A stretch of 45,872 bases of DNA, taken from the NCBI GenBank assembly GCA_027335685.1, contig DAHWHN010000132.1:1-45872 (forward strand), given 5' to 3'. Positions 254 to 18,717 of this stretch are shown in pieces. Both the position numbers and the translations under genes were made by a program. Position 1 is the first letter of the stretch. Each line of letters opens with the position of its first letter. This DNA is from Acidimicrobiaceae bacterium. Its GTDB lineage: Bacteria; Actinomycetota; Acidimicrobiia; Acidimicrobiales; Bog-793. The notes beneath the pieces were generated by a model, which searched no databases, was not told the DNA's origin, and saw nothing but the letters and a program-made list of their open reading frames with translations.

Positions 254-2368
254 TCAGGAGCGCGCGAGGATCTCCGCCGAGCGCCACGCGAGCGCCATGA
301 CCGTCAGGACCGGGTTGACGGCGCCGTTCGTGACGTGGACCGAGGAGTCGGCGATCCAGAGGTTGGTGTAGCCGTGGACTCGCCCGTCGGGCGCCGTCAC
401 CGACGTCGGGGGGTCCGCGCCCATGCGGGCCGTGCCGGCCTGGTGCTGGCCGGCGCTCAAGCCCGTGGGAACCGGTGCGCGCCAGGTGCGCAGGGCCCCG
501 GCTTCTGTGAGCCAGGCCTCCGCCCGCTCGCCGAGCAGCGCAGCGGTGCGCGCCGTCTCGGGATGGACGCTGCCGGAGAGCATCGCGACGGCGAGGCCGT
601 AGCGGTCCCGGACCCTCGGCGAGAGACGGACCCGTGAGCTCGCCACCGGGATCTCCTCGGTCGGCCCCATGACGTGGAGCGTCCGCCGGTAGCCGGCGCG
701 CATCGCCTCCTTGCCCGCGAGCCCCCAGCGCGGCGCGTCGGGTGCCAGGCCGTTCGCGAGGTACGACAGGGGCAGCGGGACGAACTCGTTCGCGAGCATC
801 CCGCCGCCGACAACCCCCGGGTTGCCGTGCGCGAACCCGCAGGCGGCCACGGCGGGGCCGGGACCGAGCCCGTCGCGCACCGGCTCGGCGAACAGCCCGA
901 ACGCCCCGGTGTAGCAGTGGCCCTGGAGGTGGCGCCCCACTTGGTCACAGCGGTTGCCGAGGCCCGCTGGCTCGGCGTCGGTCGCGCTGGCGAGCAGGAG
1001 CCTGGCGGTCTCGATCGCTCCGGCTGCGAGCACGACGTGGCCGGCGCGCAGCGTCCTCGGCGCGCCGTCGCGGTCGACGGCGATGACCCCGGCCACGGTT
1101 CCCGGCGCGCCGACGAGGACGCGCGCGACGAGAGCTCCGGTCGCGATGTCGCAGCGACCCGTCGCGAGCGCGCGCGGGATCGCCGTGTTGTGCGTGCCGT
1201 TCTTCGCGTCGAGGTGGCAGGCGAACCCGACGCACATCCCGCACCGCTCGCAGGCAGGCCGGCCGTCGCGGGGGGTCGTGTTGCACAGCAGCGGAGGCGG
1301 CCCGACCTCCCAGCCGAGGCGCCGCGCCGCGTCGCGAAGGAGGACGGCCTCGGCGCTCGCCGGGAAGGCGGGCATCGGGTAGCCCCGGCTGCGAGGTCCC
1401 CGGCTCGACGCGTGGGCGCCGCCGTCGCCCGCCACGCCGACCGTCCACTCGACGTCGCCGTAGTAGGGCTCGAGATCGTCGTAGCCGATCGGCCAGTCGG
1501 CGAGCGAGCTCTCCTCCGGCACGCCGTAGCGGGTCGCCATCGCGAAGTCGTCGGGGAAGAAGCGCCACGCCTGGCCTCCGAAGACGCGGGTGCCGCCTCC
1601 GAGCGTGGCCGCGTTGTTGTGGTAGCCGGGCTCGTGCGGCGCGGTCGTGACCTCGTCGCCGTCGGGCCCGACCAGGCTGCGCGGGTGGCCGGTCGGCGGC
1701 GGCCCGGTGCTGCAGCCGTAGCGGCTGAGGCGGTGGTTGCGGAGGTGGTCGGTACCGACCTGCACCGCGTTCAGCCACTCGCCGCGCTCGAGCACGGCGA
1801 CGCGCAGGCCCGCCGTCGCGAGGACCGCTGCGGCGACGCCGCCGCCGGCGCCCGCCCCGACGACGATCACGTCGTAGGTGTCGCGGAGATCGCCCAGGGC
1901 GCTGGAGCGCGGCACCGCCTCGTCGGGCAGCACCGGACGTGCGCCGACCGGTCGCGCCCGGAAGCCGACCATGTCCCACGCCGGGCGCTGGACATGCACG
2001 TCGCGTCCCGCGTCGCCGTAGTAGGCCTCGGTGACGACGAGGACGAGGGCGTCGCGAAGACGCGCTGCCGTCGGGGTCGCTGCCGCGAGAAGACCGTCTT
2101 GCACCTCGGGGGCGAGCGATGCGAAGCCCTGGCCGTGGACCCGGCGGGCCTCGCTCTCGAGCGAGTCGATGCCCGGGTCGAGGACGTCCTGCCACAGGCG
2201 CGCGTGCGCGCCCGTGGCGGCGCGGTCGAGGTCGTCGAGGACCCCCTCGTCGGTCGCCGAGGGCCAGCCGTCGCCACCCGGCACGATCCGGTCGGCCGCC
2301 GCCGCGACCACGGCGCGGCGCGCCGGGTCCGCGAGCCCGAGCGGGAGCCCCGCCGGACGACCACGCAC
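254..2368 (-). CDS. GMC-family FAD oxidoreductase fused to an N-terminal gluconate-2-dehydrogenase-subunit-3-like domain
   Basis: 704-aa ORF with a GTG start. The first ~120 aa resemble the small subunit-3 family (ends ...VVTEAYYGD). They are followed by the FAD fold YDVIVVGAGAGGGVAAAVLATAGLRVAVLERG and a GMC-type C-terminal domain (NPVLTVMALAWR). The start is 18 nt downstream of the preceding gene's stop. Confidence 0.85.
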   Translation of the reverse strand: MRGRPAGLPLGLADPARRAVVAAAADRIVPGGDGWPSATDEGVLDDLDRAATGAHARLWQDVLDPGIDSLESEARRVHGQGFASLAPEVQDGLLAAATPTAARLRDALVLVVTEAYYGDAGRDVHVQRPAWDMVGFRARPVGARPVLPDEAVPRSSALGDLRDTYDVIVVGAGAGGGVAAAVLATAGLRVAVLERGEWLNAVQVGTDHLRNHRLSRYGCSTGPPPTGHPRSLVGPDGDEVTTAPHEPGYHNNAATLGGGTRVFGGQAWRFFPDDFAMATRYGVPEESSLADWPIGYDDLEPYYGDVEWTVGVAGDGGAHASSRGPRSRGYPMPAFPASAEAVLLRDAARRLGWEVGPPPLLCNTTPRDGRPACERCGMCVGFACHLDAKNGTHNTAIPRALATGRCDIATGALVARVLVGAPGTVAGVIAVDRDGAPRTLRAGHVVLAAGAIETARLLLASATDAEPAGLGNRCDQVGRHLQGHCYTGAFGLFAEPVRDGLGPGPAVAACGFAHGNPGVVGGGMLANEFVPLPLSYLANGLAPDAPRWGLAGKEAMRAGYRRTLHVMGPTEEIPVASSRVRLSPRVRDRYGLAVAMLSGSVHPETARTAALLGERAEAWLTEAGALRTWRAPVPTGLSAGQHQAGTARMGADPPTSVTAPDGRVHGYTNLWIADSSVHVTNGAVNPVLTVMALAWRSAEILARS

Positions 2369-2386
2369 GCGCGCCGGTCCCTGGCC

Positions 2387-3337
2387 TCAGTAGCCGGCGG
2401 ACGGGTCGACGACCCCGTCGAGCGGCAATCCGGCGGCCAGCCGCTCGACGTTGGTCCGGATCCGCTCGGCGAGGAGCGGACGGATCATGTCCCAGGTGTC
2501 GGCCGTGTGCGGGGTGACGAGGCACCGTGGCTCGCGCCAGAGCGGATGGCCTGGTGGCAGCGGCTCGGGATCGGTCACGTCGAGAGCCGCTCCCGCGATC
2601 GCCCCCGAGGCGAGCGCCGAGACGAGCGCCTCGGTGTCGCAGACGGCGCCGCGGGCGACGTTGACGAGCACGGCGCGGCTGTCCATACGGGCGAGCTCCG
2701 GTGCGCCGACGATGCGGGTCGTCTCGGGGGTGAGCGAGAGGGCGAGGAACACGACGAGCGCTCCGGGCAGCGCGTCGGCGAGATCGGGCGTCGTGACCGT
2801 CCGGGCTGCGCCGGCGAGGGGGACCCCGCTGCGGCGCACGACCGTCGCGCGGACGCGGAACGGCTCGAGCAGGCGGAGAAGGGCCTGCGCGATGCCGCCG
2901 CCGCCGACGATCGTGACCTGTTCGCCGAACAGCGACGTTCCTGCAGGTTCACCCCAGGTCGTCGCGCGCACCCGCTCGGGCAGCCTGCGCAAGAGCGCGA
3001 GCGCGAGCAGCAGGGCGTGCTCGGCGACGGGCTCGCCGTAGGCGCCCTTCGCGCAGGTGAAGCGGGGGCCCGAGGCGAGCACGCCTGCCGCGGCGAACCG
3101 CTCGACGCCGGCTGCGGGCAGCTGGACCCAGTCGAGCGCCGGGAGGTCGCGCAGCACCCGCGCGAGCCCGTCGACGTCGCTCCCCGCCGTCCAGACCAGC
3201 CCGTCGGGCGCCGTCGGTCCTGCCGCGTCGAGCGCGATGCCGACACCTCCGCCGGCGCGCACGGCGTCGAGCACCCACGCCTCGGCGACGGGTCCGACCG
3301 CGACGACGGGTCGGGTCGTGGCAGGCGTCCTGCTCAC
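2387..3337 (-). CDS. D-isomer-specific 2-hydroxyacid dehydrogenase family, NAD(P)-binding
   Basis: GTG at 3337-3335 overlaps the upstream TGA (3336-3334), giving a GTGA junction. Motifs seen are VTIVGGGGIAQA, LVNVARG, ALDVTDPEP and TPH. The track ORF 2387..3796 extends further 5' through Arg-rich sequence that looks non-coding. Confidence 0.85.
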   Translation of the reverse strand: MSRTPATTRPVVAVGPVAEAWVLDAVRAGGGVGIALDAAGPTAPDGLVWTAGSDVDGLARVLRDLPALDWVQLPAAGVERFAAAGVLASGPRFTCAKGAYGEPVAEHALLLALALLRRLPERVRATTWGEPAGTSLFGEQVTIVGGGGIAQALLRLLEPFRVRATVVRRSGVPLAGAARTVTTPDLADALPGALVVFLALSLTPETTRIVGAPELARMDSRAVLVNVARGAVCDTEALVSALASGAIAGAALDVTDPEPLPPGHPLWREPRCLVTPHTADTWDMIRPLLAERIRTNVERLAAGLPLDGVVDPSAGY

Positions 3338-4509
3338 GTCGCCTCGATCCCGGCTAGCGCGAGAACGTGCGCCATGCGCCGCACGGCGAGGTCGCCGTCT
3401 GCGAGCAGGCCGCAGCTGTCTGCGAGGCGGAAGCACTGCGCGAGGTGGACGACCGAGCGCCCGGACTGCAGGCCCGCGACCATCGTGAAGTGCGACTGGT
3501 GGCCGTTCAGGTAGGCGAGGAAGACGACCCCGGTCTTGTAGTACGACGTCGGCGCGCCGAAGACGTGGCGCGCAAGCGGGAGGGTCGGATCGAGGCGCCG
3601 GCGGAACCCCGCCACGTCGCCGCAGTCGAGGGCCGCGAGCGCCCAGGCAGCCGCCGGGGCGGCGAAGTCGAAGGCACCGAGCAGCGCGTCGCTGTGGCCC
3701 TCCTCGTCGCCCGCGATCGTCGTCGGGTAGCCGAAGTCGTCGCCGGTGTACATGCGCACGCCTTGCGGGAGCCGCCGACGCACGACGACCTCCCACTCCT
3801 TGTCGAGCAGGGAGAGCTTGATGCCGTCGACCTTGCCCGGGTGGTCCGCGACGATGCCGAGCAGGCAGGTCGTGGCCTGCTCGACGTCGCCTGAGCCGAA
3901 GTAGCCGGCAAGGGCCGGGTCGAACGCGTCGCCCAGCCAGTGCAGGATCGCCGGGGCCCCGAGCGAGGCGAGAACCTTGTCATAGACGTAGGCGTAGTCG
4001 TCGGGTCCCCGGGCGATCCTGCACAGCTCCCGGCTCGCCATGACGACGACGGTCGCCCCGGCCCCCTCCACGGCGGCGCACTGCTCGAGGTAGGCCGCGA
4101 CGACGTCGTCGAGCGTCCGGGCGCTGCCCGGCGGGAGGTGGTCCGGCTGCGCGCCGGCAGCGATCGCACCGCCGACGGTGCGCGCCTCGGCGGCGCTGCG
4201 GACGACGAGCTCGCGCGCGACCGCCCAGTCGAGGCCCATGCCGCGCTGCGCGGTGTCCATCGCGTCGGCCACCCCGAGACCGAGCGCCCAGAGGTGGTGG
4301 CGAAATGCGAGCGTCGCGTCCCAGTCGAGCGAAGGCGGTCCGGGCGGGGTCGTCTCGCCGAGCGGATCGGCCACCACGTGGGCCGCCGCGTAGGCGACTC
4401 GGGACGTGGCCGGCGCGGCACGTCCCGGCAGCGCGGGCGCAGCGCTGCAGACGTAGCGGCGGAGCGTGCCGTCGGGCTCGGGTAGGACGATGCTCGTCAC
4501 CGACTCCAT
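3334..4509 (-). CDS. DUF993 family protein (DHDPS-like fold, function unknown)
   Basis: 391-aa ORF. By-eye match to DUF993 proteins: RVAYAAAHVVADPL, LDWDATLAFRHHLW, AMDTAQRGMGLDW, HWLGDAFDP, YTGDDF. The ATG at 4509 overlaps the LacI 3' end by 13 nt. Confidence 0.8.
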   Translation of the reverse strand: MESVTSIVLPEPDGTLRRYVCSAAPALPGRAAPATSRVAYAAAHVVADPLGETTPPGPPSLDWDATLAFRHHLWALGLGVADAMDTAQRGMGLDWAVARELVVRSAAEARTVGGAIAAGAQPDHLPPGSARTLDDVVAAYLEQCAAVEGAGATVVVMASRELCRIARGPDDYAYVYDKVLASLGAPAILHWLGDAFDPALAGYFGSGDVEQATTCLLGIVADHPGKVDGIKLSLLDKEWEVVVRRRLPQGVRMYTGDDFGYPTTIAGDEEGHSDALLGAFDFAAPAAAWALAALDCGDVAGFRRRLDPTLPLARHVFGAPTSYYKTGVVFLAYLNGHQSHFTMVAGLQSGRSVVHLAQCFRLADSCGLLADGDLAVRRMAHVLALAGIEAT

Positions 4510-5627
4510 CCCCCTTCGCGACCATCGCCGGCACGCGGACCGCTCGGCTCGTCTCCGGAGTCTCGCGCGCCCGGTTGCGCCCGACCCGGTTGCGCCCGTC
4601 CTGGTTGCGCGGTGCTGGCGCGCACGACGAGCTCGACGCCGAGGCGCTCGTCGCGGCGGACGGGGACCGTCTCGCCGAGGACGAGCTCGACGGCGCGACG
4701 CCCGAGCTCGGCCATGGGGACGCGCACGGTCGTGAGACCTGGCTCGAGGTCACGGGCGACGGGGATGTCGTCGACGCCGCACAGGGCGACGTCGCCGGGA
4801 ACGGAGCGCCGGCGCGCGCGCAGCGCGGCGAGGGCGCCGATCGCCATCTGGTCGTTGAGCGCGACGAGGGCGGTGAGCCCCGGCATGGCATCGAGGAGCT
4901 CGGCCGCTGCCCGCTCGCCTCCGTCGCGGGAGAACGCGCCGCTTGCGAGCTGGACATGGCCGGCGTCGACTCCGGACGCGGCGAGGGCGCCGAGGAGGCC
5001 GGCGAGGCGGTCGTCGCTCGCGGTGAGCCCGCCGGGCCCCGTGATGACGGCGACCGAGCGATGGCCGAGCTCGGCGACGTGCTCGCCGAGCAGGCGACCG
5101 GCAGCGACGTTGTCCGGGCGGACGCAGTCGCCGCCGGCGAGGTGGCGGCCGACGACTGCGACCCGCCCGCCGGCGCGTTCGTAGGCGCGGAGCTCGGTTG
5201 CGAGGCGCCGGCTCGTCCCGGCGTCGCTCGAGCCGCTGCCGGCGAGGACGAGCGCCTCGACCCGCCGGGCGCGCGCCCGGCGCACGGTCTCGAGCTCCAA
5301 GGCAGGGTGCCGGCCCGTGTCGCTCACGAGGACGGTCCGGCCCGACGCCCGGGCGGACTCGAGCGCGCCGCGTGTGATCTCGGAGAAGTACGGGTCGGTG
5401 ATGTCGTGGACGACGAGCGCGATCGTGGCGTCGCGCGCGCGAGCGAGGGCCCGTGCGTGCGGGTTGGGCGTGTAGGCGAGCGCGGTCGCGGACTCGAGGA
5501 CCCGGTCGCGTAGGGTCGCGCGGACCGGCCTCGACCCGGCGAGCACGCGCGACGCGGTCGACTCCGACACGCCGGCGCGGCGCGCGACGTCGAGCAGCCG
5601 GACCTCGGCCGGCTCGAGACCGCTCAC
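4497..5627 (-). CDS. LacI-family transcriptional regulator
   Basis: HTH LLDVARRAGVSESTASRVLAG plus a sugar-binding-fold core ending ...GVELVVRAS. GTG at 5627 (residue 287 of the track ORF) overlaps the upstream TGA, giving GTGA. The C-terminal ~40 aa are low complexity (AQPGR x3). Confidence 0.9.
   Translation of the reverse strand: MSGLEPAEVRLLDVARRAGVSESTASRVLAGSRPVRATLRDRVLESATALAYTPNPHARALARARDATIALVVHDITDPYFSEITRGALESARASGRTVLVSDTGRHPALELETVRRARARRVEALVLAGSGSSDAGTSRRLATELRAYERAGGRVAVVGRHLAGGDCVRPDNVAAGRLLGEHVAELGHRSVAVITGPGGLTASDDRLAGLLGALAASGVDAGHVQLASGAFSRDGGERAAAELLDAMPGLTALVALNDQMAIGALAALRARRRSVPGDVALCGVDDIPVARDLEPGLTTVRVPMAELGRRAVELVLGETVPVRRDERLGVELVVRASTAQPGRAQPGRAQPGARDSGDEPSGPRAGDGREGGWSR
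4570..4614. repeat. 15-bp tandem repeat x3 (CCCGGTTGCGCCCGA-like)
   Basis: Units at 4570-4584, 4585-4599 and 4600-4614 (the third is diverged). On the minus strand it encodes AQPGRAQPGRAQPG in the LacI tail, just upstream of the DUF993 start. Confidence 0.7.
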
Positions 5628-6439
5628 GCGACGTGCTCGGCGAAGCGGCGGGCGACGACCGCGAGGGTCTCCTCGGGGTCCGCGTCCCACACCGCGGGGT
5701 TGAAGATCTCGACCTCCACCGGCCCGTCGTAGCCGGTGGCGTCTGCGAGGCGCAGGAAGCGCCGGAGCTCGATCGTGCCGTCGCCGAGCATCCCGCGGCC
5801 CTCGAGGGGGTGCGGCGGAGGAGCGAGCCAGTCCGCGAGCTGGACACCGAGGACCGCGCCGGTTGCGGCGGCGGTCGCAGCCTCGAGGTCCGGGTCCCAC
5901 CAGAGGTGGTAGCTGTCGAGGACGACGCCGACGCCGCCTGGGATCGAGCGCGCGAGCGCGAGCGCCTGGGGCAAGGTGACGACGACGGAGCGGTCGCCGC
6001 AGTACATCGGGTGCATCGGCTCGACCGCGAGGGGAACGCCGGCCGGCCGTGCGTACGCCGCGAGCTCGGCGAGCGCGTCGGCGACCTCGCGCCGTCCTGC
6101 AGCGAGGTCCTTGGTCGCCGCAGGGCCGCAGACGAGCACGAGCATCGCGGCCCCGATCTCGGCGGCCTCGTCGACGGCACGGCGGTTGTCGGCGGCGCGC
6201 CGGCGCCTGCTCGCGTCGTCCGGCGCGCAGAACCACCCGCCGCGGCACAGCGACGAGATCGCGACGCCGGCCGTGTGCGCGCGGGCCCCGAGACGCCCGG
6301 GCCCGTCGGGCGCGAGCCGCTCGCGCCACAGCCCGATCGCCCCGTAGCCGGCACGCGCGCAGCCCTCGATCGCCTGCGCAGTCGACCAGCGCGGGATCGT
6401 CGCCTGGTTCATCGCGAGCCTGCCGAGCGGGGCGTTCAT
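5624..6439 (-). CDS. xylose-isomerase-like TIM-barrel protein (sugar phosphate isomerase/epimerase family)
   Basis: LAMNQATI... N-terminus typical of the family, with AVEPMHP and SYHLWWD motifs. There are two in-frame ATGs (6439 and 6412) created by a 27-bp tandem duplication. The stop overlaps the LacI GTG. Confidence 0.85.
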   Translation of the reverse strand: MNAPLGRLAMNQATIPRWSTAQAIEGCARAGYGAIGLWRERLAPDGPGRLGARAHTAGVAISSLCRGGWFCAPDDASRRRRAADNRRAVDEAAEIGAAMLVLVCGPAATKDLAAGRREVADALAELAAYARPAGVPLAVEPMHPMYCGDRSVVVTLPQALALARSIPGGVGVVLDSYHLWWDPDLEAATAAATGAVLGVQLADWLAPPPHPLEGRGMLGDGTIELRRFLRLADATGYDGPVEVEIFNPAVWDADPEETLAVVARRFAEHVA

Positions 6440-6460
6440 CGCGAGCCCGCCGAGCGGAGC
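6407..6460. repeat. 27-bp tandem duplication spanning the TIM-barrel gene start
   Basis: GTTCATCGCGAGCCTGCCGAGCGGGGC (6407-6433) and GTTCATCGCGAGCCCGCCGAGCGGAGC (6434-6460). On the minus strand this duplicates LAMNAPLG and the ATG. Confidence 0.8.
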
Positions 6461-6542
6461 GCCGTCGGGATCCACGCCCGTCCAAGCCGCGCCCAGGAGG
6501 GCCGCGCCGGTCGCCGTGACGCCCGGAGGCCGTCGTCGGCCG

Positions 6543-7691
6543 TCATGCCCGGGAGCCCGGCACGTCGACCCAGCGCCGCTCGCGCGCCGACGCGAGAGCG
6601 AGCTCGGCGACCTCGACCCCGCGCGCGGCGTCCCGCAGGTCCCACGGGAACGGCTCGTCGGTGACGAGGTGGCGGAGGAAGAGCTCCCACTGGTGGCGGA
6701 ACGCGTTGACCGGGGGGCGACGACCGGGCACCTCGAGCCACGGCGCGCGCGGTGTCGTCGACGCCGCCACGTCGGGGTTCCAGACGTAGCGCGGCGTCGC
6801 GGCTCCCGGCTGGATCCTGCACTCCTGGAGCCCGGCGACGGCGCTCCCGCCCGTGCCGTCCGCATGCAGCACGAACAGGTCGTCACGGTAGGGGCGTGTG
6901 CACCAGGACGCGTTGACCTGCGCGACGGCGCCGCCGGCGAGGCGGAAGATCGCGTACGCGGCATCCTCCGCCGTCGCGTCGTAGGTCCTGCCCCCCTCGT
7001 CGACGCGCACGCTCTCGTGCGTCGCCATCTCGCACAGCACGGACTCGACGGGTGCGAAGAGGTGCTCGAGCAGGTAGCGGAAGTGGCAGAACATGTCGAG
7101 GACGATGCCGCCGCCGTCCTCGGCCCGGTAGTTCCACGACGGCCTCTGAGTCGCCCCGATCGCGTCGGGGAAGACCCAGTAGCCGAACTCGATGCGGATC
7201 GCGAGCAGGCGGCCGAGCGCGCCCGAGTCGAGGACCTCGCGGAGCTTCAACAGGCCCGGGAGGAAGAGCTTGTCCTGGACCGCGCCGTTGCGGACCCCGG
7301 CGCGTTCGGCGAGATCGGCAAGCTCGTAGCCCGCGGCGCTCGTCGTCGCCGACGGCTTCTCGCAGTAGACGTCCTTGCCCGCGGCGATCGCGAGCGCCAC
7401 GGCCTGCTCCCGGCGCGCCGTCGTCTGGGAGTCGAAGTAGACCGTGTCCGCCGGGTCCGCGAGGCACGCGTCGAGGTCGGTGCTGACGCGCTCGATGTCG
7501 TGCGCGGCGGCGAGAGACCGGAGGCGCTCGAGGTCACGCCCGACGAGCACGGGGTCCGGCCAGATCGTCACGCCACCGACCTCGAGGCCGCCGTCTGCGC
7601 GCATGGCCGCGATCGAGCGCGCGAGGTGCTGGACGCGCCCCATGCGGCCGGTGACGCCGTTCATGATGATCCCGACGCGCTGCCGTGCCAC
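6543..7691 (-). CDS. Gfo/Idh/MocA-family NAD(P)-dependent oxidoreductase
   Basis: GTG at 7691 (residue 41 of the track ORF) is preceded by GGAGGGGAGG. Rossmann N-terminus VGIIMNGVTGRMG and a VYCEKP motif are present. It is the first gene of the minus-strand operon. Confidence 0.85.
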   Translation of the reverse strand: MARQRVGIIMNGVTGRMGRVQHLARSIAAMRADGGLEVGGVTIWPDPVLVGRDLERLRSLAAAHDIERVSTDLDACLADPADTVYFDSQTTARREQAVALAIAAGKDVYCEKPSATTSAAGYELADLAERAGVRNGAVQDKLFLPGLLKLREVLDSGALGRLLAIRIEFGYWVFPDAIGATQRPSWNYRAEDGGGIVLDMFCHFRYLLEHLFAPVESVLCEMATHESVRVDEGGRTYDATAEDAAYAIFRLAGGAVAQVNASWCTRPYRDDLFVLHADGTGGSAVAGLQECRIQPGAATPRYVWNPDVAASTTPRAPWLEVPGRRPPVNAFRHQWELFLRHLVTDEPFPWDLRDAARGVEVAELALASARERRWVDVPGSRA

Positions 7692-7759
7692 GCCGCCTCC
7701 CCTCCTACGCGCTCCGGTGCCGTCGCGCCCCCAGGCAGCATCGCGTGCCGCTCCGCTTG

Positions 7760-7777
7760 CTGGCAAGCGCTTGCCAG
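7760..7777. promoter_or_regulatory. perfect 18-bp palindrome, candidate LacI-family operator
   Basis: CTGGCAAGC|GCTTGCCAG, an even-length palindrome with a central CG-rich core. It lies 69-86 nt upstream of the Gfo/Idh/MocA GTG, in the divergent region shared with rhaM. Confidence 0.5.
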
Positions 7778-7850
7778 ACGAGCCGCTTGCGGCAGCGACG
7801 TCGAGGGGCAAGGATCGGCAACCGCGGGCCGGTCCGGTTGGCTCGCGCCC

Positions 7851-7927: not shown

Positions 7928-8248
7928 ATGGAGCGGGTCTGCTTCCGTTTGCACGTGCGTGCCGAGATGATCGAGGCCTACACGGAGGCGCACCGGTCGG
8001 TCTGGCCGGAGATGCGCGCCGCGCTCGCGGCGAGCGGGTGGCGCAACTACTCGCTGTTCCTCGCGGACGACGGCCTGCTCGTCGGCTACCTCGAGTGCGA
8101 CAGCCTGGACGAGGCCACGGCCGCGATGGCCGCGACGGAGGTCAACGCCCGCTGGCAGGCGGCGATGGCCGCCTACTTCGACGGCCTCGACGGGGCGGCC
8201 CCCGACGAGGGGATCGTGCCGTTGCCAGAGATCTTCCACCTCGACTGA
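7928..8248 (+). CDS. rhaM: L-rhamnose mutarotase family protein
   Basis: 106 aa: MERVCFRLHVRAEMIEAYTEAHRSVWPEM...YSLF...WQAAMAAYF. The ATG at 7928 is preceded by GGAGGGG. The track ORF starts earlier, at 7685. Confidence 0.85.
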   Translation: MERVCFRLHVRAEMIEAYTEAHRSVWPEMRAALAASGWRNYSLFLADDGLLVGYLECDSLDEATAAMAATEVNARWQAAMAAYFDGLDGAAPDEGIVPLPEIFHLD

Positions 8249-8359
8249 CGGGCGGGGAGACCGGACCGGGAGAGCGACCGGGGAGTGGGCCGGGAGACAG
8301 GTGACAGGCGGTCTCGTGCGGGAGCCCGCCGAGAGCGACCGGGGGAGTAGATTGGGCAC

Positions 8360-8722
8360 GTGCCCGACGGGTCGCTGCGACGAGATGGTGGCCCCTCCGA
8401 CCGACCGGGCGTCCTGCGGCTTTCCGCAATCGACAACGTCCTCGTGGCGCTGCGTGAGCTCCAGCCCGGCGAGGCCGTGGCCGACGGGCCGCGATCGTTC
8501 GCCACGCGCGCGGCCGTGCCCTTCGGTCACAAGGTCGCCGCCGACGACATCGACCGCGGCGCTGCGATCGTCAAGTACGGCGAGGTCGTCGGCCGAGCCA
8601 CGCAGCAGATCGCGCGCGGCGACCACGTCCATGTCCACAACGTCGTGAGCGCACGGCTGCCCGGGCACACCGGCACGGACCCGCGCCCGGCGGCGCGCCG
8701 CGCGGAGGGCGGGCGACCGTGA
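8360..8722 (+). CDS. SAF-domain protein (UxaA-family dehydratase N-terminal module as a separate ORF)
   Basis: IDNVLVAL...PFGHKVA...IVKYGEVVGRAT..IARGDHVHVHNV matches the UxaA/GarD N-terminal SAF domain. GTG at 8360 with GGGGGAG upstream. The stop overlaps the next GTG (GTGA 8719-8722). Confidence 0.75.
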   Translation: MPDGSLRRDGGPSDRPGVLRLSAIDNVLVALRELQPGEAVADGPRSFATRAAVPFGHKVAADDIDRGAAIVKYGEVVGRATQQIARGDHVHVHNVVSARLPGHTGTDPRPAARRAEGGRP

Positions 8723-9543
8723 CCTTGTCCGGGTACGCCCGACCGGACGGCACGATCGGTGCGCGCAACCACGTCCTCGTGCTCCCGTCGGTCGTCTGCT
8801 CCGCGCACGTCGCCGAGCGGATCGCAGGGACCGATGCCGTCGCGATCGGTCATCCGCACGGCTGCGGCCAGGTCGGCGCTGACGCGATCCACGCGGCCGA
8901 GGTCTTCGCGGGAATCGCTGCCCACCCGAACGTCGCCGGGGTCCTCGTCGTCGGCCTCGGCTGCGAGACGGTCCAGGGGACCGAGCTCGCGGCAGAGATC
9001 GGTGCCCGCGGCCAGCTCGTCGAGCTGCTCACGGTCCAGGGCTCGGGCGGGAGCGCGCGCACCGTCGAGCGCGGGCGCACAGTCGTCGGACAGCTGCTCG
9101 CCCGGGCAGCGTCGCAGCACAGGACGGCTGCCGGCGACGACCAGCTGGTGCTCGGACTCGACGACTCGGCGGCACCGTTCGCCCCGGTCCTGCGAGACGC
9201 CGCCACGGCCGCACGCATGCGCCTGGTCGAGCCGCATGCCGGGACCGGCCCGCAGGTGCACGCCGATCTCGCCGTGCGCGGCGCCCAGGTGATCGTCTCC
9301 TGGTGCCCGCCGGGGGAGGCACCGCGCGGCTTTGCCGTCTGCCCGGTCGTCGCCGTGGCAGCCGACGCCGACGATTTCGCAGCGATGCCGGACGACTTTG
9401 ACCTCGGTAGCGACGGTCCCCTCGACGCGGTGGCGGCCCGGATCCTCGCCTCGGCACGTGCGGTGTTCTCGGGCGAGCCGAGCGCCGCGGAGCGCCGTGG
9501 CGCACACGAGTTCGAGCTCCGCCGGTTGACGAGGTCGATGTGA
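8719..9543 (+). CDS. UxaA-family paralog, shortened (Cys-motif middle domain plus short C-terminal segment)
   Basis: GYARPDGTIGARNHVLVLPSVVCSAH, IGHPHGCGQ, HPNVAGVLVVGLGCE, and the C-terminal end ...EFELRRL. It lacks the GGSD/TTIEEK/TTGRGT core seen in the next ORF. GTGA junctions occur at both ends. Confidence 0.7.
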   Translation: MTLSGYARPDGTIGARNHVLVLPSVVCSAHVAERIAGTDAVAIGHPHGCGQVGADAIHAAEVFAGIAAHPNVAGVLVVGLGCETVQGTELAAEIGARGQLVELLTVQGSGGSARTVERGRTVVGQLLARAASQHRTAAGDDQLVLGLDDSAAPFAPVLRDAATAARMRLVEPHAGTGPQVHADLAVRGAQVIVSWCPPGEAPRGFAVCPVVAVAADADDFAAMPDDFDLGSDGPLDAVAARILASARAVFSGEPSAAERRGAHEFELRRLTRSM

Positions 9544-10742
9544 CGGTCGTACCCGGTGGCGTGCCGCCTGGCGCGTTGGGTCTCGGGCCGGTTCGCGACG
9601 TGCAGGTGAGCGGCTTCCGCCGCCCTGACGGCCGTCTCGGGGTCCGCGACCACCTGCTGGTGCTGCCGGCACGGGGGTCGGCCAGCCTCGCGGCCGCACG
9701 GATCGCCGCGGCGGTGCCCGGCGCGGTCGCCGTCGCGCACGACGCCAGGGGGGCGGCGGAGCCCGAGCCGGAGCGGATCGCCCGCACCCTGGTCGGCTTC
9801 GGGACGAACCCCAACGTCGGAGCGGTCCTCGTCGTCGGCGTGCGTGCCGACGACGCCTGGCTCGCGGACGCACTGCGGGACGCGGGACAGCGCAGCGCCT
9901 TCGTCGCCCTCGCCGAGCACCGCGGCACCGACGGTGCGGTCGCCGCGGGCGCCGTGCTCGCGGCCCGCCTCGCTGCAGACCTTGCACGTGACGTGCGTAG
10001 CCCGGGATCGCTCGCAGACGTCGTGCTCGGGCTCGAGTGCGGCGGATCGGACGCGCTGTCGGGCATCACGGCCAACCCGGGGCTCGGGGTCGCGAGCGAT
10101 CTGCTCGTCGCGTCGGGGGGCGCGTCGATCCTCGCGGAGACGCCCGAGCTCATCGGCGCCGAGGAGGCGCTCGCGGCCCGTGCGGTCTCGCCCGAGGTCG
10201 CCGCAAGCGTCCGCCGCGCCATCCTCGGTTTCGAGTCCGCGATCCGCGGGCTCGGCGTCGACGTGCGCGGGGCGCAGCCGTCCCCGGGCAACCAGGCTGG
10301 CGGCCTGACGACGATCGAGGAGAAGGCCCTCGGATCCGCGAAAAAAGGAGGTGCCGCCCCGGTCTCCGGGGTCGTCGACTTCGCCGAGCAGGTGCGCGCG
10401 CCCGGGCTGTTCGTCATGGACACCCCCGGTCACGACATCGAGCAGATGGTGGGGATGGTCGCCGGGGGCGCGCAGGTGGTCGCGTTCACGACGGGGCGGG
10501 GTACGCCGACAGGCTCCCCGATCGCTCCGTGCGTGAAGATCTCGACGAGCACCGAGCTCTACGACCGGCTTGCCGGCGACATCGACCTCGACGCTGGCGG
10601 CGTGCTGACGGGCACGGAGTCCCTCGAGCGCCTCGGAGCGCGGATCCTCGCGGCGATCGCGGACGTGTGCAACGGCCGATTGACCGCAAGCGAGCGGCAG
10701 GGCAACAGGGAGTTCGCGCTGAGCCGGACCGTCTACTCCTGA
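9540..10742 (+). CDS. UxaA-family (altronate/galactarate dehydratase-like) large subunit
   Basis: LECGGSDALSGITANP, GGLTTIEEKALGS, MDTPGHD, AFTTGRGTPTGSP, REFALSR. The N-terminal half aligns to the previous ORF, but the Cys motifs are replaced (PARGSASL, AHDARG, GVRAD). Confidence 0.85.
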   Translation: MTVVPGGVPPGALGLGPVRDVQVSGFRRPDGRLGVRDHLLVLPARGSASLAAARIAAAVPGAVAVAHDARGAAEPEPERIARTLVGFGTNPNVGAVLVVGVRADDAWLADALRDAGQRSAFVALAEHRGTDGAVAAGAVLAARLAADLARDVRSPGSLADVVLGLECGGSDALSGITANPGLGVASDLLVASGGASILAETPELIGAEEALAARAVSPEVAASVRRAILGFESAIRGLGVDVRGAQPSPGNQAGGLTTIEEKALGSAKKGGAAPVSGVVDFAEQVRAPGLFVMDTPGHDIEQMVGMVAGGAQVVAFTTGRGTPTGSPIAPCVKISTSTELYDRLAGDIDLDAGGVLTGTESLERLGARILAAIADVCNGRLTASERQGNREFALSRTVYS

Positions 10743-10837: not shown

Positions 10838-10867
10838 TTGACGGCTTCCTCCGAATGTACGTACAAT
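10838..10867 (+). promoter_or_regulatory. near-consensus sigma-70-type promoter (TTGACG-18 nt-TACAAT)
   Basis: -35 TTGACG at 10838-10843 and -10 TACAAT at 10862-10867, in a local AT-rich patch. An in-frame GTG at 10873 lies 5 nt after the -10, which suggests a leaderless transcript. Confidence 0.5.
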
Positions 10868-11709: not shown

Positions 11710-12231
11710 ATGGCCGACACGACCCGAGCCGGAGCGGCGGGCGCTGACGGCACGTCCGGGGCTCGCGCCGCGGGCGCGCTCGGCAGCGCCGGCACGGTCG
11801 GCACGTCTGGCGCAGGTCAGCCGCGGCGCAAGCGGGAGGTGAACGAGGAGAAGGTCCGCCAGTCGGAGATCGCGATCAGCCTCGTGCTCCGGATCGGCGT
11901 GAGCGTCGCCGTCGCCCTCGTGATGGCCGGCCTCGGGCTGACCTTCGCCCGGCACCCGGGCTACGCGCACCTCTCGGGCAGCTCCTACCACCCGCTCACG
12001 ATGCTGAGCTCGAAGTTCCCCCACACGATCGGCCAGCTCGGCCACGCGCTCGCCATAGGGGACGGGCGCGGCCTCATCGGCCTCGGGCTCGTCGTGCTCA
12101 TCGCGACGCCGGTGCTGCGCGTCGCGGTCGCGGTCCTCACCTTTGCCTACGAGAAGGACCCGCCGATGACGATCGTCACGCTGTTCGTCCTCGCGGTCCT
12201 GCTCAGCTCGTTCTTCATCGGGGGCGCGTGA
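11710..12231 (+). CDS. DUF1634 membrane protein (usual partner of TauE/DUF81)
   Basis: The ATG immediately follows the TauE TAG (11707-11709). A low-complexity N-terminus is followed by TM segments SLVLRIGVSVAVALVMAGLGL and LVVLIATPVLRVAVAVLTF. Confidence 0.8.
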   Translation: MADTTRAGAAGADGTSGARAAGALGSAGTVGTSGAGQPRRKREVNEEKVRQSEIAISLVLRIGVSVAVALVMAGLGLTFARHPGYAHLSGSSYHPLTMLSSKFPHTIGQLGHALAIGDGRGLIGLGLVVLIATPVLRVAVAVLTFAYEKDPPMTIVTLFVLAVLLSSFFIGGA

Positions 12232-17797: not shown

Positions 17798-17889
17798 CTT
17801 GGATGTCCCTGGCGGCTATTCCCGCCGGGAGCCGGCGCGAAGCAGGCCGGGAGCCGACGCGGCCTGCGGCCGTGCCGCGATAGCGTCGC

Positions 17890-18717
17890 GTGATGCCGAT
17901 CCCTCCGGTCGTCGACGTCGCGTGGCTCGAGGCGGCCTCCCCGTCCGTGGTGCTCGCCGACGTCCGCTGGTACCTCGACGGCCGGTCAGGCAGAGCTGCC
18001 TACGATGCGGGGCACCTGCCGGGCGCGATCTTCGTCGACGTCGAGCGTGACCTCGCCGGGCCGCCCGATCCGCGACACGGCCGGCATCCGCTGCCGTCGC
18101 CGGAGTCCTTTGCCGAGGCGTTGTGCCGTCTCGGGATCGGCGACGACGACGTCGTCGTGGGCTACGACGACGACGGGGGCGTGATCGCCGCCCGCCTGGT
18201 CTGGATGCTGCGCGTGACCGGCCGCCCCGCGGCGGTCCTCGACGGGGGCGTCGCGTGCTGGCCCGGCGAGCTCGAGGCACGCCCGAGCGTGCGGCCGCGC
18301 GCGGTTGCGACCGCGCGGGCGTGGCCGGTCGGTCGTCTCGCGTCGGCCGACGACGTCGCGACGGGCGCCCATCTCGTCCTCGACGCGCGCGCCGCCGAGC
18401 GCTACAGCGGGGCGCACGAGCCGGTCGACCCGCGTGCGGGTCACGCGCCCGGCGCGCGCAGCCTGCCGTGCCGGGAGAACCTCGACGAGTCGGGTCGCTT
18501 CCTCGCCGTCGCGCAGCTGCGTCGACGCTTCGCGTCGCTCGGCGTGTCGGCCGAGTCGAGCGTCGTCGCGTACTGCGGCTCGGGGGTGACGGCCTGCCAC
18601 GACCTGCTCGCCCTCGAGCACGCGGGCTTCGGCCCGGGTCGGCTGTACCCCGGTTCGTGGTCGCAATGGAGCAACGACCCGGCGCGCCCCGTGGCGAGCG
18701 GGCCCGACCCGGGCTGA
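17890..18717 (+). CDS. sseA: two-domain rhodanese sulfurtransferase (thiosulfate/3-mercaptopyruvate type)
   Basis: YDAGHLPGAIFVD, ERYSG...DPRAGHAPGA, active-site loop YCGSGVTAC, and YPGSWSQWS. GTG 17890 is directly followed by ATG 17893. Confidence 0.9.
   Translation: MMPIPPVVDVAWLEAASPSVVLADVRWYLDGRSGRAAYDAGHLPGAIFVDVERDLAGPPDPRHGRHPLPSPESFAEALCRLGIGDDDVVVGYDDDGGVIAARLVWMLRVTGRPAAVLDGGVACWPGELEARPSVRPRAVATARAWPVGRLASADDVATGAHLVLDARAAERYSGAHEPVDPRAGHAPGARSLPCRENLDESGRFLAVAQLRRRFASLGVSAESSVVAYCGSGVTACHDLLALEHAGFGPGRLYPGSWSQWSNDPARPVASGPDPG

Follow-up and report, generated by a model that had tools for sequence, protein, structure and literature searches.

UxaA/GarD hydro-lyases have been described as single-chain and as two-subunit enzymes. 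The single-chain members UxaA (acting on D-altronate), GarD (galactarate; structure 6U7L) and the D-arabinonate dehydratase C785_RS13685 (Watanabe et al., PMC6336799) carry an SAF domain, a second domain and a C-terminal domain in one polypeptide, with four cysteines in cis. In the two-gene form, which IMG and KEGG label altronate dehydratase small and large subunit, an SAF gene lies directly upstream of, and is translationally coupled to, the gene for one large subunit with the domains GD_AH_second and GD_AH_C and all of the motifs; one such enzyme, inferred for Paraburkholderia mimosarum (A19U_RS0100650/655; PMC6336799), is a heteromeric L-fuconate dehydratase. Here we describe a variant in which three open reading frames (ORFs), a small SAF ORF (ORF1) and two paralogs of the large subunit (ORF2 and ORF3), follow one another in a 45,872-nucleotide (nt) stretch of DNA from an Acidimicrobiaceae bacterium (contig DAHWHN010000132.1). 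We refer to this whole stretch as the window, and coordinates are positions in it unless another locus is named.

The four cysteines are conserved across the UxaA/GarD superfamily except in the (2R)-sulfolactate sulfo-lyase SuyAB, and they have been proposed to form an iron site (PMC6336799). Purified enzyme is brown, gives a [3Fe-4S]-like electron paramagnetic resonance (EPR) signal at g~2.03 and is kept in Fe2+ and dithiothreitol (PMC6336799). What iron and the cysteines do in UxaA-type dehydratases has been an unsettled question since the 1980s (Dreyer 1987, cited in PMC6336799).

The triad of ORF1-3 resembles the two-gene form in its domains, in its upstream and translationally coupled SAF gene and in its similar sugar-acid catabolic context. 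It differs in having two large subunits, neither of which combines the four cysteines with the catalytic motifs. That ORF1-3 is a widespread three-gene variant of the known UxaA/GarD hydro-lyase family is well supported. Comparison of the sequences further points to a single three-protein hydro-lyase of this family, most likely a sugar-acid dehydratase, a reading to which we assign a probability of roughly 0.6. The literature that we searched describes only single-chain and two-subunit members and no three-subunit UxaA-type enzyme, which is no proof of absence; a triad with complementary degenerate paralogs appears to be undescribed.

Complementary residue losses in the two large-subunit paralogs

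We aligned ORF2, ORF3 and their homologs with UxaA and GarD of E. coli K-12 and with 25 canonical large subunits, using MAFFT and hidden Markov model alignments; residue numbers are those of GarD unless stated otherwise. The four cysteines (Cys 1-4) are C144, C179, C215 and C288 in GarD (C134, C173, C208 and C276 in C785_RS13685), the first three in the second domain and the fourth in the ECGGSD motif of the C-terminal domain. At these columns ORF2 reads C-C-C-D and ORF3 reads S-G-(deleted)-C. No single polypeptide of the triad holds the four-Cys set, which is complete only over ORF2 and ORF3 together.

ORF2 retains C144, H175, G178-C179 and L213-G-C-E216; in its own numbering the three cysteines are C27, C49 and C82 (8797-8799, 8863-8865 and 8962-8964), and E83 is also kept. 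It is without C288-GGSD and nearly all invariants of the C-terminal domain, and about 125 residues of this catalytic domain are deleted. The losses in ORF3 are complementary. Its second domain is degenerate, with Cys 1-3 replaced by S, G and a deletion in which the GCE motif is gone, and it retains H175, D292 and every invariant residue of the C-terminal domain, with Cys 4 (C167 of ORF3, 10038-10040) in ECGGSD.

The same division is seen beyond the window. We defined invariant columns by UxaA, GarD and the 25 canonical large subunits and scored them in 20 non-redundant pairs of ORF2-type and ORF3-type proteins, hereafter T2 and T3. In the T2 proteins V142, C144, H175, G178-C179 and L213-G-C-E216 are present at 100%, together with almost no C-terminal-domain invariants. 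The T3 proteins have C288-GGSD, K382, K389, D419, TGRGTP and other C-terminal invariants at about 100%, and Cys 1-3 are absent from them. A first-pass annotation of the window had proposed that neither paralog alone carries the full motif set. The alignment with UxaA, GarD and the canonical subunits bears this out, and ORF3, being without the conserved Cys 1-3, does not keep all of the ligands.

Taken together, ORF2 and ORF3 hold the same invariant residues as the single-chain enzymes, which share their fold and are 32-34% identical to ORF3 and less so to ORF2. Large subunits of the two-gene form are about 56% identical to the ORF3 C-terminal domain and about 47% identical to the ORF2 second domain. 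All three ORFs fall below the cutoff of the GarD equivalog TIGR03248 (730.85 bits), with 194 bits for ORF3, 37 for ORF2 and 39 for ORF1. We also considered a single gene broken by a frameshift and ruled it out, since a complete second domain is present in ORF2 and another in ORF3.

Conservation of the three-gene arrangement

A homology search with ORF2 returned a family of proteins of about 270-300 amino acids (aa), the T2 family, in which 27 columns, all three cysteines included, are invariant in 44 homologs with identities down to 39%. The best 150 profile matches contain 56 T2-like clusters at 50% identity. In a survey seeded on ORF2 we collected 89 loci from a genome collection, where the single ORF2 sequence reached three loci, and from metagenomes, scanned with an alignment, and we used a profile of canonical large subunits to class each UxaA-like ORF. 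A T2 gene was present in 61 of these loci, a T3 gene lay immediately 3' of it wherever downstream sequence was available (54/54), and an SAF ORF lay 5' of it in all but one of the loci with upstream sequence (56/57). The junctions are tight: measured from the T2 stop, an in-frame start lies at -8, -4, -1 or 0 nt in 51 of 54, and in P0016/L009 the SAF domain is fused to the T2 protein. Canonical large subunits with all four cysteines (CCCC) occurred in the surveyed loci as a single copy beside an SAF gene, never with a second copy.

The reverse test, seeded on T3, gave a matching result. Four loci were picked irrespective of ORF2, one of them from the isolate Conexibacter sp. CPCC 206217 (GCA_030646165.1, JAUTDO010000004.1, 177092-186267); each has SAF and T2 genes upstream of the T3 gene (4/4), and the best 120 ORF3 homologs have the T3 pattern without exception (120/120). 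T2 and T3 proteins are each monophyletic, and the branching of the two paralog trees is mirrored, which fits one old duplication followed by co-inheritance. The first-pass annotation had made its proposal depend on the three-ORF arrangement being found in related genomes, and it is found widely. The triad recurs in many Actinomycetota and in some other bacteria, and it is a conserved system rather than a product of decay.

Selection and predicted folds

Computed against relatives that are 73-90% identical, the ratio of nonsynonymous to synonymous substitution rates (dN/dS) was 0.23-0.27 for ORF2, 0.11-0.17 for ORF3 and 0.32-0.43 for ORF1, values that show purifying selection on all three. For the upstream gene rhaM dN/dS was 0.09-0.22. 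Identity within the second domain is 58% among T2 proteins and 47% among T3 proteins; for the N-terminal part of the C-terminal domain it is 68% among T3 and 29% among T2 proteins. In either paralog, conservation is highest in whichever domain still has the canonical motifs.

AlphaFold2 predicts ORF2 to be compact, with a second domain and a reduced alpha/beta domain (predicted local distance difference test, pLDDT, 94.3; predicted template modeling score, pTM, 0.92). The ORF3 model has a pLDDT of 87.5, with residues 1-20 disordered. In Foldseek searches the sole significant match of either model was E. coli GarD (6U7L), the only structural relative that has been solved, with E = 3.5e-10 and a TM-score of 0.72 across both domains for ORF2 and E = 1e-27 and a TM-score of 0.76 for ORF3. 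What the first-pass annotation had taken for a short C-terminal end of ORF2 is instead the reduced alpha/beta domain, of about 130 residues and with a predicted pLDDT above 95. Judged by its model, ORF2 is a trimmed, well-folded "mini-GarD" rather than a fragment with a short tail.

The deletion of about 125 residues from the ORF2 catalytic domain and the loss of its motifs could also mean that ORF2 is a decaying duplicate of ORF3, a pseudogene in progress. This is scarcely credible given the dN/dS of ORF2, the 27 columns that are invariant in homologs as distant as 39% identity, the 56 T2-like clusters, the monophyly and age of the T2 clade, the predicted pLDDT of 94.3 and a G+C content at third codon positions (GC3) of 0.88. 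We regard decay of ORF2 as effectively refuted by dN/dS, family conservation and predicted fold.

A different possibility is that SAF-ORF2 forms one enzyme and ORF3 another, each with its own activity in a shared pathway, given that each protein is predicted to fold alone with high confidence and that the two were never found fused among the best 150 representatives. We consider this very improbable. Essentially all superfamily-invariant C-terminal residues, including the substrate-side motifs, are absent from ORF2, so that a new site would be required for ORF2 to catalyze a reaction on its own. The complementarity of the losses, the tight coupling and the co-occurrence in very different neighborhoods are better explained by one complex.

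A model for the ORF1-3 enzyme

From comparative genomics we infer that ORF1-3 would form an obligate heterocomplex. Such an enzyme could have arisen from the two-gene form, with its SAF gene and one large subunit, through tandem duplication of the large subunit followed by complementary degeneration of the copies. ORF2 would contribute the second domain, whose three cysteines and adjacent glutamate are the proposed iron or iron-sulfur module, on a reduced C-terminal scaffold. ORF3 would contribute the complete catalytic C-terminal domain with Cys 4, its own second domain being structurally intact and Cys-less. The SAF subunit would remain attached on the ORF2 side, and ORF2 and ORF3 would pair via their second domains as a pseudo-symmetric heterodimer. 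One complete active site would be made up of the ORF2 Cys module and the ORF3 catalytic domain, the reciprocal site would be dead, and translational coupling would hold the three proteins at a fixed ratio.

This model would require the ORF2 second domain to sit against the ORF3 C-terminal domain, as would follow if the sites of the ancestral homodimer spanned the dimer interface. GarD reportedly dimerizes through its second domain (structure study by Rosas-Lemus et al., 2020). Complementary loss is expected if sites are shared between protomers, whereas purely intra-chain sites would lead one to expect that one whole copy dies. The EPR data quoted in PMC6336799 invite the speculation that the three cysteines hold an aconitase-like cluster. 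By analogy with the single-chain relatives, iron dependence is presumed.

Enzymes that combine an active with a degenerate paralog offer an analogy, for example the trypanosomatid S-adenosylmethionine decarboxylase (AdoMetDC) with its prozyme and the ATP-binding cassette (ABC) transporters with one degenerate ATP site. Prozyme-type systems resemble the proposed complex in duplication, loss of catalytic residues and mutual dependence of the partners. They differ in that one partner is usually simply dead, whereas ORF2 and ORF3 each keep a different half of the residue set.

Points against a shared site and the comparison with SuyB

Several points weigh against the three-protein enzyme. Its four-Cys iron site is called tentative by the source of that model (PMC6336799). 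A natural ORF2-ORF3 fusion is missing from the best 150 representatives. The other points come from a putative SuyB of Paracoccus versutus pTAV3, identified by synteny only (a GntR regulator and a sulfate-exporter gene, an arrangement known from suyAB-suyZ). This protein has I, R and a deletion at Cys 1-3 and retains H175, Cys 4 and D292, which matches what PMC6336799 reports of SuyAB, and it has an SAF partner only, with no T2-type gene. The three cysteines are therefore not universally needed, and Cys 4 in ORF3 is by itself no proof of a shared four-Cys site. The pattern also implies that a T3-like large subunit can probably work without a T2 protein, at least for sulfite elimination.

The strongest alternative builds on this comparison: ORF3 with SAF may be a self-sufficient lyase like SuyAB, and ORF2 a non-catalytic accessory with a Cys-bound metal or cluster that serves in regulation, redox or iron sensing, stabilization or cofactor delivery. 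We judge it unlikely, if well worth considering. The putative SuyB has the residue pattern of ORF3 and no T2-type neighbor, all C-terminal-domain invariants are present in ORF3, and ORF2 evolves faster than ORF3 (dN/dS 0.23-0.27 vs 0.11-0.17). However, T3 proteins are not SuyB orthologs. ORF3 is 32% identical to the putative SuyB vs 48% to the canonical large subunit P0059, and in a neighbor-joining tree built from the C-terminal domain SuyB falls outside the group of UxaA, canonical and T3 proteins, with T3 beside the canonical four-Cys subunits. This distance indicates that Cys loss was independent in the two, and it rules out ORF3 as a SuyB ortholog. Unlike SuyB, no T3 gene was seen without a T2 partner (54/54 and 4/4 loci), and the Cys/Glu motif, kept in 100% of T2 proteins, is more readily explained by a role retained at the catalytic site than by a newly acquired accessory one. 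SuyAB, moreover, eliminates sulfite and may not need the Cys module: sulfite is a far better leaving group than hydroxide, so a sulfo-lyase may do without it.

At the level of the locus, the putative SuyAB of P. versutus is like the triad in its separate SAF subunit, its large subunit without Cys 1-3 and the anion exporter and GntR genes nearby. It is unlike the triad in lacking a T2 partner, in an exporter family that differs from TauE and in its chemistry, which is C-S cleavage where dehydration is expected for ORF1-3.

Related UxaA-family forms

Other Cys-bearing partners, the "long" partners of 343-379 aa (Table 1), have intact Cys motifs and C-terminal motifs that are degenerate but undeleted. 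All three contexts examined contain an SAF gene and a second UxaA-like gene; the second gene, aligned in two of the three, is without Cys 1-3 and keeps the catalytic motifs. In L092 and L093 the order is permuted, with the T3-type gene first, then SAF, then the long partner. The complementary design thus comes in more than one grade.

A further form, about 330 aa long (440 aa in L070 as called), retains Cys 1-3 and usually has Arg in place of Cys 4. In the N-terminal part of its C-terminal domain, about half of the sequence is missing. This form stands alone, in that neither an SAF ORF nor a second paralog was detected in its locus.

Gene coordinates and coding signals

The three ORFs, both GTGA overlaps and all motifs quoted in the first-pass annotation are present in the sequence and its translations (Table 1). 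Both ORF2 and ORF3 exceed the gathering score for PF04295 (GD_AH_second). ORF3 covers positions 2-239 of 242 of the GD_AH_C profile (PF20629), and ORF2 has only a sub-threshold match to GD_AH_C, at profile positions 143-238. The SAF domain of ORF1 spans residues 25-96, and the start codon of this ORF is uncertain. GC3 is 0.87-0.89 across ORF1-3, like that of adjacent genes; the G+C content of the whole window is 74%, and a gene for a mycothiol-dependent maleylpyruvate isomerase lies within it, which marks the DNA as actinobacterial. The rhaM product scores 49.5 bits against TIGR02625, under the model cutoff, and rhaM is possibly co-transcribed with ORF1-3.

Table 1. Positions of the genes, sequence signals and related forms discussed in the text
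Feature	Locus	Positions	Strand	Remarks
Divergent upstream cluster	window	254-7811	-	
rhaM, L-rhamnose mutarotase family	window	7928-8248	+	Pfam rhaM E = 3.9e-29; 111 nt 5' of ORF1
Direct repeat GAGAGCGACCGGGG	window	~8272 and 8333		Two copies in rhaM-ORF1 spacer
Palindrome GGGCACGTGCCC	window	8349-8360		Perfect, 12 nt
ORF1, small SAF (beta-clip) subunit	window	8360-8722	+	120 aa as called; Pfam SAF E = 2.9e-10
Shine-Dalgarno-like GGAGGG	window	8704-8709		10 nt 5' of ORF2 start
GTGA overlap ORF1/ORF2	window	8719-8722	+	GTG 8719-8721 over TGA 8720-8722, read from sequence
ORF2 (T2), large-subunit paralog	window	8719-9543	+	274 aa; Pfam GD_AH_second E = 4.4e-36
Shine-Dalgarno-like GAGG	window	9531-9534		5 nt 5' of ORF3 start
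GTGA overlap ORF2/ORF3	window	9540-9543	+	GTG 9540-9542 over TGA 9541-9543, read from sequence
ORF3 (T3), large-subunit paralog	window	9540-10742	+	GD_AH_second E = 5.1e-18; GD_AH_C E = 3.3e-90
Promoter-like site TTGACG-18-TACAAT	window	10838-10867	+	Sigma-70-like, 10/12 matches; 0.0 expected in shuffles
DUF1634 gene	window	11710-12231		
Rhodanese gene	window	17884-18717		
Putative SuyB, P. versutus pTAV3	L090	5689-7164		
Long partners	L091-L094; P0271, P0283, P0293, P0316 and others			343-379 aa
~330-aa form	L038	654-1637		
~330-aa form	L049	1506-2519		
~330-aa form	L061	949-1935		
~330-aa form	L087	933-1928		
~330-aa form	L070	6653-7975		440 aa as called
~330-aa form	P0063			
FAH-family gene (PF01557)	L096	5175-6008		Directly 3' of triad
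FAH-family gene (PF01557)	L097	5178-5945		Directly 3' of triad
E1 dehydrogenase alpha and beta genes	L053	4429-6428	triad strand	~300 nt 5' of SAF ORF

ORF3 exists as the first-pass annotation placed it, and its true start is uncertain. The region homologous to other T3 proteins begins about 56 nt past the ORF2 stop; in the window's clade this onset lies 50-171 nt after the T2 stop, vs 0-3 nt in most other clades. The late onset and the disordered first ~20 residues make a start at GTG 9600 or 9606 possible. Either the coupled junction has drifted in this clade or ORF3 has gained a disordered N-terminal extension.

Two short sequence elements lie near the called start of ORF1. The palindrome GGGCACGTGCCC overlaps its GTG, and the repeat GAGAGCGACCGGGG lies in the spacer between rhaM and ORF1. 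Both are possible operator sites.

Gene neighborhood and possible substrates

Within the clade of the window, the triad is flanked by rhaM upstream and by genes for TauE, DUF1634 and GntR downstream; rhaM is syntenic in L002, L003 and L005, close relatives of the window. The promoter-like site downstream of ORF3 lies within the first part of the TauE ORF as called mechanically; translation of TauE could instead begin, without a leader, at the in-frame GTG 10873. At this site the ORF1-3 transcription unit probably ends and a distinct TauE-DUF1634-GntR unit begins. Membership of TauE in the ORF1-3 operon is doubtful, given this site and the presence of a TauE neighbor in just 4 of 32 long triad loci. 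The DUF1634 gene tightly abuts the TauE gene. Conservation of the pair in L002, L003 and L005 suggests that the two proteins make up a two-component membrane transporter; NCBIfam models gave no match to the TauE and DUF1634 proteins.

These neighbors bear on another reading, in which ORF1-3 would work like SuyAB as a sulfo-lyase, with sulfolactate, a sulfo-sugar acid or another sulfonated acid as substrate, and the sulfite would be exported by the downstream TauE/DUF1634. The TauE/SafE gene (Pfam E = 6e-49) and the DUF1634 gene stand directly 3' of the triad and are syntenic in the same three loci, ORF3 and SuyB have a common Cys pattern, and a rhodanese gene is found in the window. In published pathways, SuyAB occurs together with an exporter for sulfite or sulfate (PMC12421959). 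We nevertheless hold a sulfo-lyase to be improbable. TauE is rarely a neighbor of the triad and stands behind its own strong promoter-like site, ORF3 is distant from SuyB in the tree, and genes for a sulfolactate dehydrogenase of the SlcC/ComC type were not found in the window. The IMG name is altronate dehydratase large subunit, not SuyB, and in other clades the triad lies among ordinary sugar-catabolic genes.

A dehydratase for a sugar acid finds circumstantial support in such clades. The operon that the triad closes in low-GC (42-44% G+C) clades from freshwater metagenomes encodes a rhamnulokinase-like kinase (447 bits), a RhaD-like class II aldolase, an HAD phosphatase and a second FGGY kinase. 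Neighbors in other clades include an LldD-like L-lactate dehydrogenase, a lactaldehyde-dehydrogenase-like aldehyde dehydrogenase, KduI/IolB, Gfo/Idh/MocA and LacI proteins, short-chain dehydrogenases/reductases (SDRs) and an enolase-superfamily protein. In two of the T3-seeded loci an FAH-family hydrolase gene is directly 3', and the two others have SDRs nearby; in the route described in PMC6336799, FAH-family hydrolases and SDRs work together with a D-arabinonate dehydratase of the UxaA type. Among the 34 loci flanked by 6 kb or more, 22 have a neighbor of deoxyhexose-pathway type, many of these loci being mutually related.

The substrate is plausibly a sugar acid, possibly a 6-deoxyhexonate, as far as gene content can suggest. 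The first-pass annotation had pointed to a deoxy-sugar acid on account of the adjacent rhaM. The neighbors in distant clades lend this some support, and the rhaM argument itself holds only for the window's own clade and one distant locus. The only neighbors that the triads have in common with their closest canonical two-gene relatives are SDRs, so the ancestral substrate cannot be inferred from neighbors.

Individual loci have further genes near the triad. The FAH-family gene of L096 and L097, from a Dormibacteraceae metagenome-assembled genome and a related metagenome contig, is accompanied by a response-regulator receiver gene directly 5' of SAF. In L053, from a freshwater metagenome, genes for the alpha and beta subunits of a thiamine-pyrophosphate-dependent E1 dehydrogenase lie 5' of the SAF ORF, and an enolase-superfamily gene lies further 5'. 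In the window, the divergent cluster upstream of rhaM encodes a GMC oxidoreductase with an N-terminal region like gluconate 2-dehydrogenase subunit 3, a DUF993 protein, LacI, a xylose-isomerase-like TIM-barrel protein and a Gfo/Idh/MocA protein. Its DUF993-to-Gfo part is syntenic in L005, where a gene of the 2-hydroxyacid dehydrogenase family replaces the GMC oxidoreductase gene. The cluster looks like a sugar-oxidizing catabolic module.

Implications for the UxaA/GarD family

One UxaA/GarD structure exists, and it is without bound iron. With the Cys and catalytic modules on separate polypeptides, the triad is a ready-made test of each module and of a cross-subunit site. A wider reading is that UxaA/GarD sites may in general span two protomers, the Cys-bound iron or iron-sulfur centre in the second domain of one chain facing the catalytic C-terminal domain of the other. 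ORF2 and ORF3 would then be a natural dissection of such a site into an obligate heterodimer with one live centre, serving an undescribed dehydratase for 6-deoxyhexonates of the L-rhamnonate or L-fuconate type in Actinomycetota, including freshwater lineages. We offer this broader proposal tentatively, as a possibility that falls short of being probable.

Databases label both paralogs "UxaA family hydrolase" or "altronate dehydratase large subunit". A T2 protein alone should not carry a dehydratase annotation, and pathway reconstructions should demand all three genes. The triad occurs in sugar-catabolic operons of soil Actinomycetota and of low-GC freshwater lineages, near genes of rhamnose and fucose type, and it may mark an unrecognized step in deoxy-sugar turnover.

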